Source: an uncultured virus (IMG/VR IMGVR_UViG_3300030101_004641) (lineage: Duplodnaviria > Heunggongvirae > Uroviricota > Caudoviricetes). From it: DNA of 64,000 nt. Location of the stretch: IMG/VR virus record IMGVR_UViG_3300030101_004641; one strand, written 5' to 3'. Shown one piece after another: positions 30,685-50,310 of this stretch. Each line of letters starts with the position of its first letter. Positions within the stretch are counted from its first letter, which is position 1. The notes beneath the pieces are model-generated. The model worked only from the letters and a program-made list of their open reading frames with translations. It made no database searches and was not told the DNA's origin. The position numbers and the translations under genes are program-made.

Positions 30685-33600
30685 TTATGCTGCTTCAAGG
30701 GCTGCGACTTTTGCTGATAATTCTTTCACTGCGTTTATTAAAATAGGTACAATTCTTTCATATTTCATAGTGTATGATCCACTTGAATTTATTGATGAAA
30801 TTAACATATCTTCTTTTGTTTGACCAAAGCCAAATTCTTTTTCTATTTCTAATTCTTCTTGTGCAATTAAACCTAATTCAAGTTGTGGTGCTTTTTTAGA
30901 TCCATCAGGAGAACCATCTTTATACCAATCTCTATTATCCCAACGATAAGTAACAGGTCTCATTTTGTTTACCCAATCCAATCCAAAATTAAAATCAGTT
31001 ATATCTGTTTTGTCTCTTTTATCTGAACCTGTTTGAAAAGCTACTTGAATATGTGCGGCACTAACACTTGAATCGCCTATACAAACTGTATTACTTGCTG
31101 TTGAAACTGTTCCAGAGGGTGAGCTACTTGTTCCCGCACGTTTTCCAATAAATGTATTATTAGAACCTGTTGTCACATCAAATCCAGAAATTGTTCCTAC
31201 ACATGTATTATTTTCTCCAGTTGTGTTAAGCCTCATAGCGTCCATTCCCATTGCTACGTTATTATCTGCCGTTGTATTATCAGCTAGACAATTTTCTCCT
31301 ATCGCAACATTCCCTGATCCTGTAGTATTATCTGTTAACGCAAATACTCCAAAAGCACAATTTTTGTCTCCAGTAGTATTTGTGTCTAAAGCTTGACGAC
31401 CAACAGCAGTGTTATCTGTTCCAGTTGTGTTTGCAAATAATGCATTTTCTCCAACAGCAGTATTATTGCTTGCGGTNNNNNNNNNNCCAGTAGTACAAGC
31501 ATCTAAAGCTAAAGAACCTACAGCAGTATTTTGTATTCCAGTTGTTATTTCTCCACAAGAGTTATTACCTACTGATGTATTATTAGACGCTGTTGTATTA
31601 TTTGCTAAAGCATTTCTACCAACAGCCGTATTATCTGTTCCTGTGGAATTAGTTGTTAAAGCTTGATAGCCAATTGCTGTGTTATCATCTGCTGTAGTGT
31701 TGGCATCTAAAGCTAAAGAGCCAACTGCTACGTTTCTTGTTCCAGTTGTGTTTGCAAATAATGCATTTTCTCCAACAGCAGTATTATTGCTTGCAGTTGT
31801 ATTACTACCCATACTTCCACGACCTATAGATATATTTTTTTCTCCTGTAGTATTAAAACTTAAAGCACCAAATCCCAAAGCAATATTTCTATCTCCTGTA
31901 GTGTTAGCATCTAAAGCAAAAGCACCCACTGCTACATTTTCTGTTCCAGTTGTGTTTTTTTGTAAAGTTGCAAATCCAACAGCCGTATTATTATCTGCTG
32001 TATTCTCCTCTAAACAATCTCTTCNNNNNNNNNNTATTTTGGTCACCACTGGTATTATGTCTAAAACAATTGACACCCATTGCTGTATTATTATTACCAC
32101 TTACATTATCTTCACCACAATTTAAACCAACAACTGTGTTTGATGTTCCAGTTGTATTTACCAATAATGCGTCTGCTCCAATTGCAGTATTATTAGATCC
32201 TGTCGTATTATCTCTTAAAGAAAGACTACCGATTGCTGTATTAGCAGAACCTGTTGTGTTATTTGATAATGCTGTACTACCGAAAGCAGAGTTATTATCA
32301 GAAGTAGTATTTGCTCCTAAAGCATTAACACCAACCGCTGAATTATTACCTCCTGTTGTGTTTGCATCAAGCGCACCAGTTCCCACAGCTGTATTTAAAA
32401 CACCAGTTGTATTAGAACCTAAAGCTCCATAACCAACTGCTGTAGCATTACTAGCAGTAGTATTAGCATCTAAAGCTCCTGCACCTACGGCTGTGTTTAA
32501 ATCTCCAGTTGTGTTTGCTGATAAGGTTAGATGGCCAAGAGCAGTATTATTATTTGCTGTTGTATTGTTAGCTAAAGCTGATGTTCCAACTGATACATTT
32601 TGCGTACCAGTTGTATTTACATGTAACGATCTCCACCCAACAGCTACGTTATTAGCTGCCGTTGTATTAGCTTCCAAAGATTCAGCACCAAATGCAGTGT
32701 TAAACCCTCCAGTGGTATTTATTATCATAGAACGATGACCCACTGCTGTATTAAGTTGTCCTGTTGTGTTATTAGCTAAACCACTAAATCCAACAGCAGT
32801 ATTAGAACTTGCTGTTGTGTTATCTGCTAAAGCATCGTGACCAACCGCTGTATTCTCAGCTCCAGTTGTATTTGTTGTTAATGCTTGTATTCCAACGGCA
32901 GTATTATTATCAGCTGTAGTATTAGCATCTAATGCGAAAGCACCGACAGCTACGTTGTCTGCTCCAGTTGTGTTTTCCCTTAAAGCAGAATAACCTACAG
33001 CAGTATTGTTATCGGCAGTCGTATTTTTTCTTAAAGAATCTACTCCAGTTGCAGTGTTCTTATCTCCAGTAGTATTATCTGTTAAAGAAGCTTGTCCTAC
33101 TGCTGTGTTTTCTGCTCCCGTAGTGTTATCTGATAAAGTAGCTTGACCTATTGCAGTATTATCGTTTGCTGTAGTATTTGCATCTAAGGCTTGCTCTCCT
33201 ACCGCTGTATTTTGTTGACCACTAGTATTTAGAGTTAAAGCGTTTTTACCAATTGCCGTATTTTTTTCACCAGTAACAGCAGCATCTAAAGCACTTTCTC
33301 CAAGAACTGTGTTACCGGCAACAGAGTTCGCACCTTTACCTACAGTTACGCTATTTATTGTTGCGTCTTTTGAAGTAATTGTTAGTCCATTACCATCTAT
33401 ATTTAATATTTCAGTTGCATTAGAAACAACTCCTATATCTCCAGAACCTTTTCTGTAAAATCCAGTGTCTTCGTCTGCAATAAAAGTTATGGAGGGAGAT
33501 CCGCTGGCTCCTGCAGGGAATGTACCACCTGCATTTAGATAATCAGCAGTCGCATATATTATTCCAAAAAATGCATGTCCACCCGTAGGGGCAGAACTAA

Positions 33601-33832
33601 AAACAATATTTGTTCCAACTAAATTAAATCCTGAAGCTCCAGTAGGATCAGGTTCTTGAATGACTCCATTAACTGATATTAAAATTTGTTGGGGTGATTT
33701 TGGGAAAGGTACGGGAGAGGAACCAGCAACTTGTAACGCAAAAGATGTGGCACTACCGTCAAATCCACTGCTTATATCATCGATTAATCTATAATCGTCA
33801 GCGGCACGAATAGTATTTCCAATATATGGCAT
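30685..33832 (-). CDS. Long tail fibre with NTAxG repeats and C-terminal Peptidase_S74; one gene interrupted by two assembly gaps
   Basis: Track ORFs 31991-33832 and 30685-32100 join across N10 gaps at 32025-32034 and 31477-31486; GSDKRDKTDI...GLIAQE. Confidence 0.85.
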
Positions 33833-43874: not shown

Positions 43875-45020
43875 TTACTCTGTAATTGTGAAGGCAGTGG
43901 TAATGAAGTCCTTATTCAAGTTCGCAAAGCCAGCATATAGCTGCCAAATAAGAATGATAAATCTTGAAAAATCATCATTATTATTAATTAGAACCTGAGC
44001 ATTAGGACCACCGATACCAACACCGATAGCTTGAGGACCAAAAAATAGTCCTGCTGGAGTTGTCTTAGATACAGCTCCACCTCCATCTCCAATATCGACC
44101 GTAATTGTTTTTGATGGGAAGTTTGTAGATTCAAAGAATCTTACTCCTTCGAATACGAATCCAGAAGGCATAACTGGCTCACCAGCTACGAACTGAGCTT
44201 GTCCATACTGTCCACCAGCATAGAGTGCTTGGTTAGGACCCATTGCACCCATTAAAGGTGAACCTTGTCCCATTCCTGGATATCTAGCTACCTCACGGAA
44301 GCCTTGATCAGCCCTTAGATCTTTCATGAATGAAGGATCTGCAATGCAACGATAATAACCGTCTGCAAATACTGGTACGTGACGCTTTCTTAAACTCTTA
44401 ACTACCTCAAGAAGGTCAGTTTTTACATTAAACTTAAAACGCTCAGAAGCATATTCTGTAGCAGAGTATGAGTTTAGTGTTGTGGAGTTAGATTTTGTCT
44501 TTGTATTTGGATAGTAATAACCACCCTGTGTATCAGATGAAGCACCACGAGATTCAGATTTGAATAATTCATCAATGAATACTCTGTCTCTCCATCTTCT
44601 ATAGTCATCTAATAAAGTCAGTGAGCCAATTGACTGATGGAACATATTAAGGTTCCCAGTATCAAGCAGCAAACGCTGAGCTGTCATTAGGGTTTCTCTA
44701 GCAATTTTAAATGTGCTAGGAAGATTTGTATTATTAGGGTCAGCTGGACCTGTATACTCTCTTAGAGATACAAGTACTTTGTCCTTTACGATAGATCTGC
44801 TATTCGCTGTTCCAATAGTCTGGTCCTGAGTCCTCTCTCTAGAGGTCTTAGTTCCTGGATTACCGAAGAAACGATAACGGTCTAACTGAACGGTCTGCCC
44901 TGGCTGCTTAGTGAAGTCATGTACTACCACAGGCTCAGAGGCCATCTCAACGATGTACGCTGGATGTGGACGGTACAGCTCGGCACCAAGCAGCTTCGGA
45001 AAATCGTTATCTATAAACAT
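43875..45020 (-). CDS. Major capsid protein (HK97 fold, N4-gp56-like)
   Basis: KQPGQTVQLDRY, GFVFEGVRFFESTN, FFGPQAIG; follows portal and scaffold; high-expression codon usage. Confidence 0.85.
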   Translation of the reverse strand: MFIDNDFPKLLGAELYRPHPAYIVEMASEPVVVHDFTKQPGQTVQLDRYRFFGNPGTKTSRERTQDQTIGTANSRSIVKDKVLVSLREYTGPADPNNTNLPSTFKIARETLMTAQRLLLDTGNLNMFHQSIGSLTLLDDYRRWRDRVFIDELFKSESRGASSDTQGGYYYPNTKTKSNSTTLNSYSATEYASERFKFNVKTDLLEVVKSLRKRHVPVFADGYYRCIADPSFMKDLRADQGFREVARYPGMGQGSPLMGAMGPNQALYAGGQYGQAQFVAGEPVMPSGFVFEGVRFFESTNFPSKTITVDIGDGGGAVSKTTPAGLFFGPQAIGVGIGGPNAQVLINNNDDFSRFIILIWQLYAGFANLNKDFITTAFTITE

Positions 45021-45806
45021 TTTTAGAAGTCAGCTAGGTTTGCTGATAGTGAACACTGGAAAAAAATTCCAATATATAAATTATAAATTGACTTAATATT
45101 CTACTTATTTAAGTTTCAGGGTTTATTACCGACTGAGTTGTAGTCCCATTAAGCATATTTCCTAAAGAATATGTTGTTGGCGGAACAGTACCAATCCTTC
45201 CCATTGGGTTTATATATCCGTCTTCAGGTTGTAAATCAGCTTCGCCAGCAGCAGCCATTTCATCTTCAAGATCCATTAGGTCTTGAGCCATTTCAGCCAT
45301 TCTTACAGCTTTTTTTGCTTTTTTAGTGTCCATTTACTTCTTACCTTTTTTTAATTCTAAAGGAGGCTGACCTACAGGTAATTGAGTTAATCCAGCTAAG
45401 GGTAAAAATCTTGCTAGAAACAACTGTTCTTGCGATAACATTATGTCTTGTCTTTGCTGAGCAACATCAAGATTTCTTGGTGTTAATAAACCATTAGCTC
45501 CTAAAGGAGATCCAGGCAAATTTAATTTTACATAGGAAGCATCTAAATCAGAAGGCATTGCCGCTGATTGACCAATCCTTGTATCTCCTTGTCTCATCCT
45601 ATAAGTTGCGTATTCGTCTACACTCCCTTTAATTAACTGGTTCTGTAAATCACTTGCACCAAAGTTAATTAGTTGCGGTGATCCTATAGCTCCTCCTGAA
45701 GTGCCAAGACCTGCTAAAAATTGGTCAGCTTTTTCGTTTGTAGTAGGTTTTTTCTTTTTTTTCATAATTAGAAATTAAATGGGGTGTTTTACCACCCCTT
45801 TAAAAT

Positions 45807-46811
45807 TTACTCCATTACGAGAAGTTTTTGACGGAATACTTCAGGATTCTGTTGAGCAGCATTTAAGTAACGCCATGCATTTTGTGGGTCACGATCTGCA
45901 GCCCCGCCAAAATCTTTCCAGAAATCTGTAGGATCGGCTGCGGCTTGTGGTCTTGGTGGAACAGGCATCTCAGGTCTTGTAGGAGCTTGAGCCTGTACTT
46001 GTGGATTCTGTATTTGCTGACCTGCAAATGTAGGAGCTTGTGGAGCTGCATATGCTGGTCTATCTTCTTCAACTGGATATGGTCCTTCTGGTCCGAAGAA
46101 TTCACATGTATAGTCAGCTAATACGTCTGGATCTGTCAATATCTGCTCATAAGCTTTATGTTCAGCAGACATCTCTTGTAATAAACCAATTGCTTCAGCT
46201 AACTGTTGATTAGTTGTTATTAATGAGTCCTCAATCTGACAAGCATAGTTATTAAGAATATTTGGAGCATCTGCACCAAAGTGCTGGAGTACTTCAATAC
46301 TATCTGGACTTACCCCGTTTGCTAGGAGTGCTTCCTCTGTCAGGACCTGAGAAGTTTGGGAAGAGTTGTTGGAGTATGCCTGGTTGTTGTTGTTCGAAGG
46401 CGTATAAGTCTGCTGAGCCGGATTGCTGTACTGGGTTGTTTGTTGGTATCCGTAATTGCCCTGCTCTGTTGCTGGGTTTGCCACTGACTGTTGACCCTGG
46501 AACGGGAATTGGACTGGTGAACTCAGGAGTCCTACCACTCTGTTGAATGCGTCCTTGTATGGGTTCTCCGCTTGTGGGCTCGCCTGTTGTGGCTGGGGGC
46601 TGTACGCTGTAGGGGCGGATTGGTAACCCTGTACCCCCATCTGGGCTTGCACTTGTGGTGCTGGTGCCACCTGAGTTGTTGTCGGTGCCACCCATTGTGG
46701 GGAAGTTGCTACTGAAGGAGCCTGAGCTGAACTCTGAGCCACGTAGCTGGTCTGTGGGGTCTGGGATACTTGGGGTGCTGATTGGGTCTGAGCTGCGGTA
46801 GCGTCCTGCAT
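45807..46811 (-). CDS. Probable scaffold protein (Gln/Pro-rich)
   Basis: Between portal and MCP; GAGGT RBS; coiled-coil core. Confidence 0.65.
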   Translation of the reverse strand: MQDATAAQTQSAPQVSQTPQTSYVAQSSAQAPSVATSPQWVAPTTTQVAPAPQVQAQMGVQGYQSAPTAYSPQPQQASPQAENPYKDAFNRVVGLLSSPVQFPFQGQQSVANPATEQGNYGYQQTTQYSNPAQQTYTPSNNNNQAYSNNSSQTSQVLTEEALLANGVSPDSIEVLQHFGADAPNILNNYACQIEDSLITTNQQLAEAIGLLQEMSAEHKAYEQILTDPDVLADYTCEFFGPEGPYPVEEDRPAYAAPQAPTFAGQQIQNPQVQAQAPTRPEMPVPPRPQAAADPTDFWKDFGGAADRDPQNAWRYLNAAQQNPEVFRQKLLVME

Positions 46812-48558
46812 AAGTTACCTCTTTCTGTAATGATTCTAATGTTCTGTATAAAAATGGAGTTAGATCAAGACGTGGATCTGCGGCCATTGGTAGGTTAGGC
46901 TGCTGAGGGTGTGGAGTCCTCATCTCCTGATTTATAAGATCAATAAATGAAGAATACGCCCTTTGTACTTCTCCTACCATTCTGAATGGAAAACCGGAAA
47001 GCATCCCAGCAATTTCGTCATCAGTTTTAGAAGGAAATAAATACTTCAGTGCTTCTATACTATCAACCCCCAATTCTTGAAGGTTTCTAGTAAATATAGA
47101 TTGGTTCAATTTATCCTGTGCTGTGTCCTCATATACAGGACCCATCCATCTCCAAAGAACCGTTCTATCACCATCAGGTGCAAGCCCTACAACACCATCT
47201 GGAATTTCTTGTTTTTCTAATGCTTCAGTAATAGTAGCTTGTAATTTTTTCTCATATCTTTCTTTTTGTTTATCATATTTTTGTAATGCTTTTTCTAATT
47301 CTTTTGGATCCTCTGAATCTTCGGGTGGAACAGGATATTTTATTCCTGCTGAAAATGCAAGAGATTTTCTAAATATCTGTTCTTCTTGATAAATAATTAA
47401 TTCAAAAACTTTACAAATTCCATACTGATAAATTTGTAGACATTTCTTTTTAGCTGTAGCACTAACTCGACCGTATGCGGATTTAATTTCAGTTGCTGTT
47501 ACGTTAGTAATACTTAAATCATCTATGCCACCAAGTGCTAATCTAATTTCACTTCTTAATTGTTCTGTGTAACGAGCCTGATCAGATCCTACAGGATTTG
47601 GTGTAATAAAACCAACACGATCTGAAGGTTCTAAATTAGCTATAACTCTTGGAACTCTCATGCCACTTCCTGGCCTTCCAGAGTATCCAGCAGGAGCTCT
47701 TGTTACTGGATCAGATTTATATGTAGAACTAAATAAATCAACATTGGAGCCAAAACCGGATTGACTAGATATACTTGGTCTTTGTGCAGTTTCAGAATCA
47801 CTTTCTACAATGTCTTGTTTTGGTCTAGATGAAAGGAGAGTTGGATTACCAAAAAATGATAAGTTCGCTCTAATATTTTTTACCATTTCATCGTGAGCAA
47901 TAATCTGATTGGCTAAAAATTCAAACTCACCTGATCCATCAGTTCCAAATGCATCAGGATTATTAAATACTTCTACACAAGGAATAAATTCCATAGTATT
48001 TTCTACAGTTTTTTTATCAAAAGATGCAAAAGTTGTAGTCTCTTGATCAAACTTTAATTCTTGCTCACTATGAATCTCTTCTATTTCTTTTGCAGTAATT
48101 TTTAATCTCATATATCTTTTATCTGTATTTAAACCAACACCAGAAAAACCTTTAGAAGATTTAACCTTGTACGGATAGATAACTACTACTTCTTCGAGTT
48201 CTCCTTCTGGAGAATAATATGATCTGTAAGAATCTTTATTAAACCAATAAATCCTATATGATTTCTTTGTAGGTCTTATATAAAATAAACCTTTTCCATA
48301 AGCTAAAAATCTATCCCATATGGCATCAAGTCTTGCATCTAATTGATTAAATTTAATAACCTGTTGTATCAAATCAAATCGTTGAGTTCCAAAATTATCC
48401 TGCATGGGATAAAACTCAACTCCCTGTCTTATACCAAACATCTTCATCTGGGATAAGTGGGAACTAAGTAGCATAGTATCTGCAGTTCCCTTACCGTCCC
48501 TTGTGATGACGGATTTGATCATATCTTCCAGAATAGATTTGCTATTGCTTTCACTCAT
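46300..48558 (-). CDS. Portal protein with a C-terminal extension overlapping the scaffold gene
   Basis: Between terminase and capsid; FIPCVEVFN, FFGNPTL, SIEALKYL portal-like patterns. Confidence 0.75.
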   Translation of the reverse strand: MSESNSKSILEDMIKSVITRDGKGTADTMLLSSHLSQMKMFGIRQGVEFYPMQDNFGTQRFDLIQQVIKFNQLDARLDAIWDRFLAYGKGLFYIRPTKKSYRIYWFNKDSYRSYYSPEGELEEVVVIYPYKVKSSKGFSGVGLNTDKRYMRLKITAKEIEEIHSEQELKFDQETTTFASFDKKTVENTMEFIPCVEVFNNPDAFGTDGSGEFEFLANQIIAHDEMVKNIRANLSFFGNPTLLSSRPKQDIVESDSETAQRPSISSQSGFGSNVDLFSSTYKSDPVTRAPAGYSGRPGSGMRVPRVIANLEPSDRVGFITPNPVGSDQARYTEQLRSEIRLALGGIDDLSITNVTATEIKSAYGRVSATAKKKCLQIYQYGICKVFELIIYQEEQIFRKSLAFSAGIKYPVPPEDSEDPKELEKALQKYDKQKERYEKKLQATITEALEKQEIPDGVVGLAPDGDRTVLWRWMGPVYEDTAQDKLNQSIFTRNLQELGVDSIEALKYLFPSKTDDEIAGMLSGFPFRMVGEVQRAYSSFIDLINQEMRTPHPQQPNLPMAADPRLDLTPFLYRTLESLQKEVTYAGRYRSSDPISTPSIPDPTDQLRGSEFSSGSFSSNFPTMGGTDNNSGGTSTTSASPDGGTGLPIRPYSVQPPATTGEPTSGEPIQGRIQQSGRTPEFTSPIPVPGSTVSGKPSNRAGQLRIPTNNPVQQSGSADLYAFEQQQPGILQQLFPNFSGPDRGSTPSKRGKSR

Positions 48559-48786: not shown

Positions 48787-50310
48787 TCAATACTCTAACT
48801 CAAGTTTGCCACGAGTCATTAACCCATTACATAGCCAGACTAAGGCATCTACACAATCATCATGTGAGCTAACGCCAAAATTTACTATCTCATCAGTTAA
48901 ATGAGTCATTTTTCTAAATTTATTAAATATAATTTTTCGTTGTTCAAAAAGTCCCATGATTCCACGAAATCTTGCAACTTTATCTCCACGGAAACCTTTT
49001 ACTGGATGCCAAATTAGATTATATAAACCTTGCTCCTGTAGACATATTCTTTTAAAGTCTGCTTCTAGTGAAGCTTGATACGCAACTGCCTCTGACCATA
49101 CATCTATTGAACTACCTGTAGGAAAATAATTTTTACCATCTTTATGAATGATTCCCCACTCCTCCATCATTTCCATTAAAAGTTCTAATTTTTCTAAATT
49201 TCCCATAACTCTTACTCTTTTACAATCTATGATGTGGATCTTATCTTTTACTCTCCCTCCCATAACAAAAACTGTATAATCATTCTGTTCTCTAACTCCA
49301 GCAGATAAATCTACTCCAACTCCTAAAGAATCAAACTCTGTAGAAATAGTTCCTTTAACAATTAAATCTGGAGACAATGATAATTCGCTAGTCTGTACAA
49401 TTTGATTTTGATATTGAAAACTAAAGGCTATAGGTGCAATTCTTCTACGATCACCTAAATACTCTAATGACCACATTTCAGGCCAATAAGATGTTTCCTC
49501 TCCCTCTTCATCAACAGTTATTGCAGATTGCACTATTTGTCTCCAACCATTAGCGGGTAAGAAAGTAGTGTTATGAATATCATCATGTCTAAACCTAGTT
49601 CCTAAACAAATAGCTCTTGCTCCTTCAAACATAGTAGGAACAATAACTGCATTCCAGTTATCCTCCATAGCTTGTCTAATATCTTTATTTTTAATATCAT
49701 CAGAACTTTTTATAGCATCATCAATTATACAAAGATGTGATCTTTTCGAGGTAACAGCACCTTTTAATCCTGCACAACATACGGAAAATTCTTCTTCACC
49801 AGTTGATTTTATTCCTGCAAATTTCCAATCAATGCTCCAGTATTCATTAGAATTTATTCCCTTAGCAATCTTAACTGTAGGAAAAATTTCTTTATAAATT
49901 TTACTTTCTTCTATAATTCTTTTTATCGCTGCACTCTTCGGTCTAGCTACATCAACTGTATAAGAAATATATAAAATTTTTAAAGGCATTTTATTTAAAG
50001 CATGTATGCCGATAGCCCATGCTGTATATAGTCCTAATACTGTAGATTTAGCAGATCCTCTTGGAGCAAGTATATCAATATTTGGACCAGCGATACCTCT
50101 TAAACAAACACTGTCATCTCCTGTGCATAAATATTTATGCCATTCAAGATGATGTTTAGCTGGTGGTTTTCCCCCTACAACATCACAAAAGTATGCAAAA
50201 TTTTTTCTAGCCTTTTCAACATCTACATTAGAAGTTTTCTTTACGACTTGTTGTTTTGCAGCTGCCCTTGCTGTGCGTCTATAAACGCTATAGATACTAG
50301 TTCCTGCCAT
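48787..50310 (-). CDS. terL: Terminase large subunit
   Basis: Walker A APRGSAKS, Walker B LCIIDD, GTRF, nuclease GVDLS...HDDCVDA. Confidence 0.95.
   Translation of the reverse strand: MAGTSIYSVYRRTARAAAKQQVVKKTSNVDVEKARKNFAYFCDVVGGKPPAKHHLEWHKYLCTGDDSVCLRGIAGPNIDILAPRGSAKSTVLGLYTAWAIGIHALNKMPLKILYISYTVDVARPKSAAIKRIIEESKIYKEIFPTVKIAKGINSNEYWSIDWKFAGIKSTGEEEFSVCCAGLKGAVTSKRSHLCIIDDAIKSSDDIKNKDIRQAMEDNWNAVIVPTMFEGARAICLGTRFRHDDIHNTTFLPANGWRQIVQSAITVDEEGEETSYWPEMWSLEYLGDRRRIAPIAFSFQYQNQIVQTSELSLSPDLIVKGTISTEFDSLGVGVDLSAGVREQNDYTVFVMGGRVKDKIHIIDCKRVRVMGNLEKLELLMEMMEEWGIIHKDGKNYFPTGSSIDVWSEAVAYQASLEADFKRICLQEQGLYNLIWHPVKGFRGDKVARFRGIMGLFEQRKIIFNKFRKMTHLTDEIVNFGVSSHDDCVDALVWLCNGLMTRGKLELEY

Follow-up and report, generated by a model that had tools for sequence, protein, structure and literature searches.

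A 64,000-nt stretch of DNA from an uncultured tailed phage (IMG/VR record IMGVR_UViG_3300030101_004641; hereafter the window) carries a run of head genes. The portal gene (46300..48558, −) encodes 752 amino acids and adjoins, on its upstream side, the gene of the large terminase (48787..50310); the major head protein gene (43875..45020, PHROG 1357) lies downstream. Between portal and major head protein sits an ORF for an acidic protein of 334 amino acids (45807..46811, −; pI 4.17), which we call scaffold-like. Its ATG (46809..46811, −) is assembled from the T-A-T triplet of portal Tyr583 and the G that follows it; as codon 583 contributes all but its first base, the scaffold-like frame is +1 relative to the portal frame. 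A Shine–Dalgarno-like AAGAGGT (46817..46823, −) lies 5 nt 5′ of this ATG, within portal Lys-Glu-Val codons, and the portal stop, TAG, is at 46300..46302 (−). The portal core, residues 1–582, is encoded by 46812..48558 (−), and the remaining 512 nt (46300..46811, −) specify both portal residues 583–752 and scaffold-like residues 1–170.

A sequence-only reading of the window had claimed such a 512-nt overlap of the portal C-terminal tail with the scaffold N-terminus, with the portal frame open for about 170 codons beyond the scaffold ATG. The ORF coordinates bear this out, with 169 codons between Tyr583 and the stop, and the peptide ending in KEVTYAGRY and the codon strings that were quoted (cct tcg aac aac aac aac cag gca tac tcc aac aac tct, in which AAC serves for each of six Asn, and tac aag gac) are all present. 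In phage genomes, genes that overlap on one strand mostly share just a few bases. Elsewhere in the window, 110 nt (31991–32100, −) are common to ORF 30685..32100, which begins with GTG, and ORF 31991..33832; an over-long start call may account for this.

The overlap also stands out in composition, as had been noticed from the letters. In 200-nt windows its G+C content is 0.505–0.585, compared with 0.355–0.415 in the adjoining DNA. At third positions of the scaffold frame, G+C (GC3) drops from 0.53 within the overlap to 0.22 once the portal stop is passed, the genome-wide figure being 0.18, so AT-ending codons resume at that stop. Over the whole overlap, scaffold-frame Asn is AAC in 10 of 12 cases (170 of 802 in 39 reference ORFs) and Tyr is TAC in 8 of 9 (78 of 367 in the window's reference ORFs); these G/C-ending scaffold codons keep the portal frame open. 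The two frames do not differ in how far their codon usage departs from that of the genome (Spearman 0.14 versus 0.20; relative synonymous score −0.30 versus −0.29); codon usage, tried as a means of dating the frames, does not separate them.

The portal ORF matches PHROG 20475, annotated ‘virion structural protein’, with E = 9.4e-211, residues 6–750 aligning to positions 5–700 of the 701-position profile. The match thus spans the tail as well as the core. No Pfam family, and hence no curated portal family, was matched at E up to 0.01. An AF2 model built from 49 family members (mean pLDDT 72.6) is confident for the core up to about residue 588, and a Foldseek search of the PDB with this model returned portals in all of its top rows (9efk_A, E = 9.8e-12), including those of LME-1, 80alpha/SaPI1, T7, SPP1 and lambda (probability 1.00), confirming at the level of the predicted structure that the core of the 752-aa protein folds as a portal. 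Codons of the core show a normal coding pattern, with diversity of 0.38–0.52 at third and 0–0.22 at second positions.

The tail beyond this core is rich in Ser, Pro, Gly and Thr, basic (pI 9.2) and predicted to be disordered, with pLDDT below 50 except at about residues 676–694, where block 681–690 (pLDDT 82) is its sole high-confidence segment. This segment falls within the first of two sequence motifs, PEF..P.PGSTV (residues 678–692; 46483..46527, −), which is common to 20 portals that are 33–43% identical to the reference row of the alignment (A1) and in which the P and G of P.PG are invariant. The same 20 portals share a second motif, ADL..QPG.L.QLFP.F, read in the window as GSADL...QPGILQQLFPNF (residues 714–736; 46351..46419, −), and a Lys/Arg-rich end, which in the window is the basic tip SKRGKSR (46303..46323, −). 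At least four Lys or Arg occur among the last 20 residues in 42 of 49 diverse family members.

The scaffold-like protein has no match in Pfam, PHROG or PDB-sequence families, and an Atlas search with it gave weak leads only, the nearest named cluster being PF09306 with a score of 0.75. Its N-terminal half, the 170 residues encoded by the overlap, is acidic, rich in Gln, Ala, Ser and Pro, and predicted to be disordered apart from one conserved helix. The AF2 model, which is of low confidence throughout (mean pLDDT 49), leaves residues 1–158 disordered bar a helix at 84–96 and places helices at 159–239 and 294–332; a scaffold would be expected to be elongated and helical with a C-terminal helix-turn-helix, a likeness on which helices modelled at this confidence bear neither way. 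The order portal, scaffold-like gene, capsid gene also holds in distant loci. Given this gene position and the low-confidence helical model, the downstream protein is probably a scaffolding protein. In two relatives (L168, 4209–5363; L007, 4736–5803), a long low-complexity insertion rich in Asp, Tyr, Asn and Gly occupies the linker before the C-terminal helices.

The stretch separating the scaffold-like gene from the major head protein gene contains two small ORFs of 143 and 74 aa without family matches (45109–45765, −), and an ORF of 140–158 aa occupies the same place in distant relatives; either of the small ORFs could encode a further assembly or decoration protein. A G+C-rich, terminator-like hairpin with a T-rich tail is found 9 nt past the scaffold-like stop (45781–45798, −), and the loose end of an RNA-library contig, X6, bears a similar hairpin. 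The region holds 2 terminator-like sites against 3.3 in shuffles, a count that is not significant.

Both readings of the overlap are present in every relative from which DNA was recovered. Two scans of viral contigs confirmed 556 and 597 relatives, and the scaffold-like ATG occupies an unchanged position in each of the 162 distinct loci, which fall into two clades with portals about 52% identical to one another. In the window clade (82 sequences: the window, L001 and 80 contigs at 76–93% identity), every member carries the ATG and 81 show the portal stop, with an overlap of 464–554 nt in 80 cases and of 329 nt in L067. The second clade is that of Synechococcus phage S-EIVl/S-EIV1 (KJ410740), the sole isolate matched among 50,697 records; here the ATG is present in 81 of 81 loci, the stop is seen in 78 and the overlaps span 542–692 nt. 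Portal stops at variable positions near the scaffold start, which the sequence-only reading had named as evidence against a maintained tail, are thus absent from the two clades: the stop lies 464–692 nt past the start, except in L067. In that locus both frames end early (overlap of about 329 nt), through an indel or an assembly error. Another locus, L023, has an in-frame stop within the portal core.

The arrangement extends beyond these clades. A profile scan returned 77 diverse viral loci, some lying on contigs that had come up before, and 62 of them hold a complete portal gene with a +1 ORF across its stop, with overlaps of 476–638 nt when counted from the first ATG. In 14 of the others the contig ends first, and in L187 the stop comes 9 nt short of the contig end, so that a spanning +1 ORF is found in 62 of the 63 loci of this set in which the portal stop is seen. 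Among the 62 are portals 42–45% and 34% identical to the window's, and the overlaps of these diverged portals are likewise raised in G+C (0.58–0.63 versus 0.42–0.46). The most distant branch was reached by way of tail-less portals about 30% identical to the window's; of the 12 metagenome loci retrieved with the resulting alignment (A3), 7 were of sufficient length, and each has a +1 overlap, of 179, 305, 353 or 542 nt. Scans of the viral contigs with the single proteins P0136 and P0186 yielded no loci, and for a truly tail-less portal, such as P0186, no DNA locus was recovered in the scans. In most lineages the start site lies at the end of the portal core, and TATG recurs there in distant loci (L165, L240 and L241), with tails that vary from about 18 to 230 residues. 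Tail length varies in the most distant relatives too, yet the stop is never near the start wherever the DNA is seen.

Several tests bear on whether one or both of these frames are used. First, the stop-free portal frame is not explained by the scaffold frame's amino acids. With scaffold residues held fixed and codons drawn from the usage of neighbouring genes, shuffled sequences carried a mean of 11.7 portal-frame stops and none of 20,000 was stop-free, compared with 0 stops observed; the claim that scaffold codons avoid creating portal-frame stops is upheld by this depletion from about 12 to 0. Two other nulls, also of 20,000 shuffles each, gave P = 0.005 for zero portal-frame stops when synonymous codons were permuted within the overlap and P = 0.010 when whole codons were shuffled. 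The third frame of the same strand has 6 stops in the overlap. The reverse test is weak: with the residues of the portal tail fixed, the scaffold frame was open in 13.5% (codon usage) or 28% (permutation) of shuffles. An open length beyond chance is therefore found for the portal frame, whereas the scaffold frame taken alone has P = 0.135–0.28, and the single sequence argues for the portal frame while the scaffold frame needs comparative evidence.

Second, substitution patterns supply that evidence for both frames. Per clade, trees were built with FastTree from the non-overlapping flanks (65 unique sequences), and changes in the overlap were counted by Fitch parsimony and classed as synonymous (S) or non-synonymous (N), with the scaffold-frame class written first and the portal-frame class second; rates were divided by mutational opportunity, and a phantom second frame superimposed on single-coding flanks served as control. 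The window-clade rates of 6.4 (SS), 2.05 (SN), 1.25 (NS) and 0.64 (NN) come from related metagenome contigs, with ancestral states set by parsimony and every change assessed on its own within the parental codon; alignment is difficult in low-complexity stretches, and some changes scored as ‘stop’ are artefacts of this procedure.

Two of the ratios test the scaffold frame. SN/NN is 3.24 [2.53–4.2] in the window clade and 2.99 in the second clade, above phantom controls of 1.2–1.3 and 1.23–1.27, and NS/SS is 0.20 and 0.17, below controls of 0.55–0.82 and 0.65–1.01. The other two test the portal frame: NS/NN is 1.96 [1.57–2.56] and 1.60 [1.26–2.04], above controls of 0.67–0.72 and 0.61–0.79, and SN/SS is 0.32 [0.23–0.54] and 0.32, below controls of 1.3–1.4 and 1.05–1.16. 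The first pair of departures indicates selection on the scaffold frame and the second pair selection on the portal frame; alignment guided by the portal instead of the scaffold frame gave the same selection result. Judged by these substitution classes, purifying selection is acting on each frame, in both clades. Past the portal stop, NS/NN falls to 0.53, SN rises to 5.0 and the portal-frame signal is gone.

The two constraints are unevenly spread. Portal-frame selection is strongest at scaffold codons 2–30 and 111–168, with NS/NN of 2.9–3.2 for residues 111–168, and is weak in codons 31–110, where NS/NN is 1.0–1.4 with intervals that reach the controls. Scaffold-frame selection is already apparent in codons 2–30 (SN/NN 4.2 [2.15–14.1]) and reaches an SN/NN of 7.0 [3.5–32.9] for residues 86–110. 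This last stretch largely coincides with the best-conserved scaffold-frame segment, NPYKDAF...PFQGQ (residues 83–107; 46491..46565, −; alignment A5), which contains the one helix predicted in the N-terminal half. Diversity at the three scaffold codon positions is 0.024, 0.070 and 0.268 for residues 86–105, and 0.116, 0.381 and 0.135 for residues 126–145, where portal third positions vary most and where the DNA also encodes the second tail motif. The substitution and diversity profiles show that constraint alternates along the overlap, some segments being ruled by the portal and others by the scaffold frame.

The start site of the scaffold-like gene is conserved in a form that fits its use, with two limits on how far its conservation can be read. 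The Lys-Glu codon pair before the ATG is AAG-GAG, AAA-GAG, AAG-GAA or CAG-GAG in 162 of 162 loci and AAA-GAA in none, although window codon usage makes AAA-GAA the commonest pair expected, with a share of 0.61; since the loci are related, the kept Shine–Dalgarno-like tract is suggestive only and 162 of 162 is not a probability. The ATG itself falls in a conserved Tyr-Ala/Gly pair whose Tyr is preferentially encoded by TAT; that the ATG persists is therefore no separate demonstration that it is used. A more distant locus, L239, has AGGAGG before its internal ATG. A scan for a sigma-70-like site before the internal ATG found none, with 4 sites in 4 kb compared with 11.1 in shuffles, a scan that is uninformative for cyanophage. 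Contigs from four marine RNA-library runs (three studies) on 45800–47200 span the ATG with no indel; as DNA may be present in libraries of this type, they do not demonstrate transcription, and they are blind to frame. From these sequence features, we suggest that ribosomes would begin translating the second gene from the internal ATG, downstream of the purine-rich Shine–Dalgarno-like tract and independently of portal translation.

If instead the portal tail were the only product of the overlap, with the downstream gene starting later, the open +1 frame upstream of that start would be a by-product of a tail composition poor in stops and in hydrophobic residues. The 13.5–28% of shuffles in which the scaffold frame stays open around fixed tail residues, and the ATG forced by the Tyr-Ala/Gly pair, are both compatible with such a later start, as is the S-EIVl GenBank record, which annotates just 7318–7719 of L001 (133 aa, from an internal ATG). 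Against it, scaffold-synonymous changes run at 3.0–3.2 times the double-nonsynonymous rate compared with 1.2–1.3 in controls, in both clades and from codons 2–30 onwards, and NPYKDAF...PFQGQ varies almost solely at scaffold third positions. The window, moreover, has no Met from the portal stop to about residue 205, with conserved scaffold sequence directly after the stop, and the Shine–Dalgarno-like tract at the upstream ATG is kept. We regard a later start as very unlikely.

The converse, that only the scaffold-like gene is translated while the portal ends functionally near ...YAGRY and its extension is unselected read-through or a G+C artefact, we consider more improbable still. It draws on the predicted disorder of the tail, on a tail sequence that diverges fast and in some distant relatives numbers only about 18–58 residues, and on the weak portal-frame signal in the middle of the overlap. 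It has to be set against the absence of open portal frames from all 20,000 shuffles made with local codon usage, and against the relatives, in which the portal frame is open through the tail in all loci with a stop seen but one (L067, where both frames end early). The portal-frame ratios also depart from controls in both clades (NS/NN 1.6–2.0 against 0.6–0.8; SN/SS 0.32 against 1.05–1.4), the motifs and basic tip are kept at 33–43% identity, the PHROG profile runs through the tail and the raised G+C ends at the portal stop. Together, the substitution classes in two clades, the motifs and the structural model support the earlier suggestion that selection maintains a Ser/Pro/Gly-rich, predicted disordered portal tail.

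Least probable of all is programmed ribosomal frameshifting near the ATG that would yield a portal–scaffold fusion and not two independent proteins: the genes do share a strand and a +1 relation, and frameshift fusions are known in phage structural genes (T7 10A/10B, the tail chaperones G/GT), but each of the 162 loci has an ATG and Shine–Dalgarno-like tract at the junction, no slippery X XXY YYZ run is visible in the 19 nt upstream of the ATG, and a shift has no need of a portal frame that is open and selected for another 170 codons.

The overlap is thus very probably a genuine and ancient out-of-frame pair of head-assembly genes in S-EIV1-like marine cyanophage, with two products. Two disordered, low-complexity products would tolerate shared coding, and such tolerance is the usual way in which long viral overlaps persist (PMC8227390).

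What the portal tail might do can be sketched from its predicted position. In solved portal structures, the C-termini sit in the crown and face the capsid interior; twelve flexible tails with basic tips would thus reach into the head and might meet DNA or the acidic core of the scaffold there, as the particle assembles or ejects its genome. A bolder version, to which we assign a small chance, is that the overlap is a functional coupling, beyond mere tolerance, in which the two disordered regions would cooperate at the portal vertex. The basic tails would recruit the acidic scaffold-like protein, or at a later stage the DNA end, so that the head is first nucleated and afterwards emptied, with portal ribosomes crossing the internal start setting the portal-to-scaffold ratio. 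A complex prediction for portal residues 1–752 with scaffold-like residues 60–180 scored 0.00, which says nothing for or against binding. Were the coupling true, the fixed start and variable tail (about 18 to 230 residues) would make an evolvable ‘tether’ module of this phage family.

Apart from any coupling, the tail with its motifs and basic tip is a conserved portal appendage for structural work on cyanophage heads to seek, and the overlap is a natural test bed in which two disordered regions share codons. The analysis also corrects the annotation of a widespread cyanophage lineage whose reference genome truncates the downstream gene; any gene caller that penalizes overlaps will truncate it likewise. 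A literature search found no publication on a portal/scaffold-like overlap, the S-EIV1 paper itself having been outside its reach.

The closest known system is S-EIVl itself. Its portal-like protein (AHV82224.1, 767 aa) is 52% identical to the window's over residues 5–750, tail included, and a +1 ORF (6742..7719 of L001, 325 aa) opens at the same TATG site, giving an overlap of 554 nt; in GenBank the downstream gene appears only as its last 133 residues, and both genes are labelled ‘hypothetical’. S-EIVl is of freshwater origin in host and clade; the contigs nearest to the window come from marine metagenomes.

Among tailed double-stranded DNA phages, the lambda spanin genes Rz and Rz1 are an established case of +1 dual coding on one strand in which both products are real. 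There, the Rz1 gene lies entirely inside Rz, far fewer bases are shared, and the two lysis proteins are known to bind one another. Here, by contrast, 512 nt serve as the 3′ part of one head gene and the 5′ part of its neighbour, and the likeness concerns the arrangement of the genes, not binding. For the tail as a protein feature, one parallel is the portal barrel of P22, a long C-terminal addition beyond the crown that forms a helical coiled coil and is encoded by non-overlapping DNA. The addition described here would likewise face the capsid interior, but it is predicted to be disordered and is dual-coded.

Overprinting in small viruses (phiX174 A/B/K and D/E, and many RNA viruses) offers a further parallel, with long out-of-frame overlaps whose products are enriched in disorder and whose frames constrain each other's synonymous sites (PMC8227390). 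Those genomes are a few kilobases long and size limits have been invoked for them, whereas this phage has at least 64 kb, the length of the window, and both products are low-complexity, predicted disordered extensions of structural genes that are ordinary in other respects. The locus therefore presents well-replicated, long out-of-frame coding in a large double-stranded DNA phage, for which genome compression is a poor explanation; overlapping genes in viruses are already known as a kind, and the portal/scaffold-like pair adds a new case.
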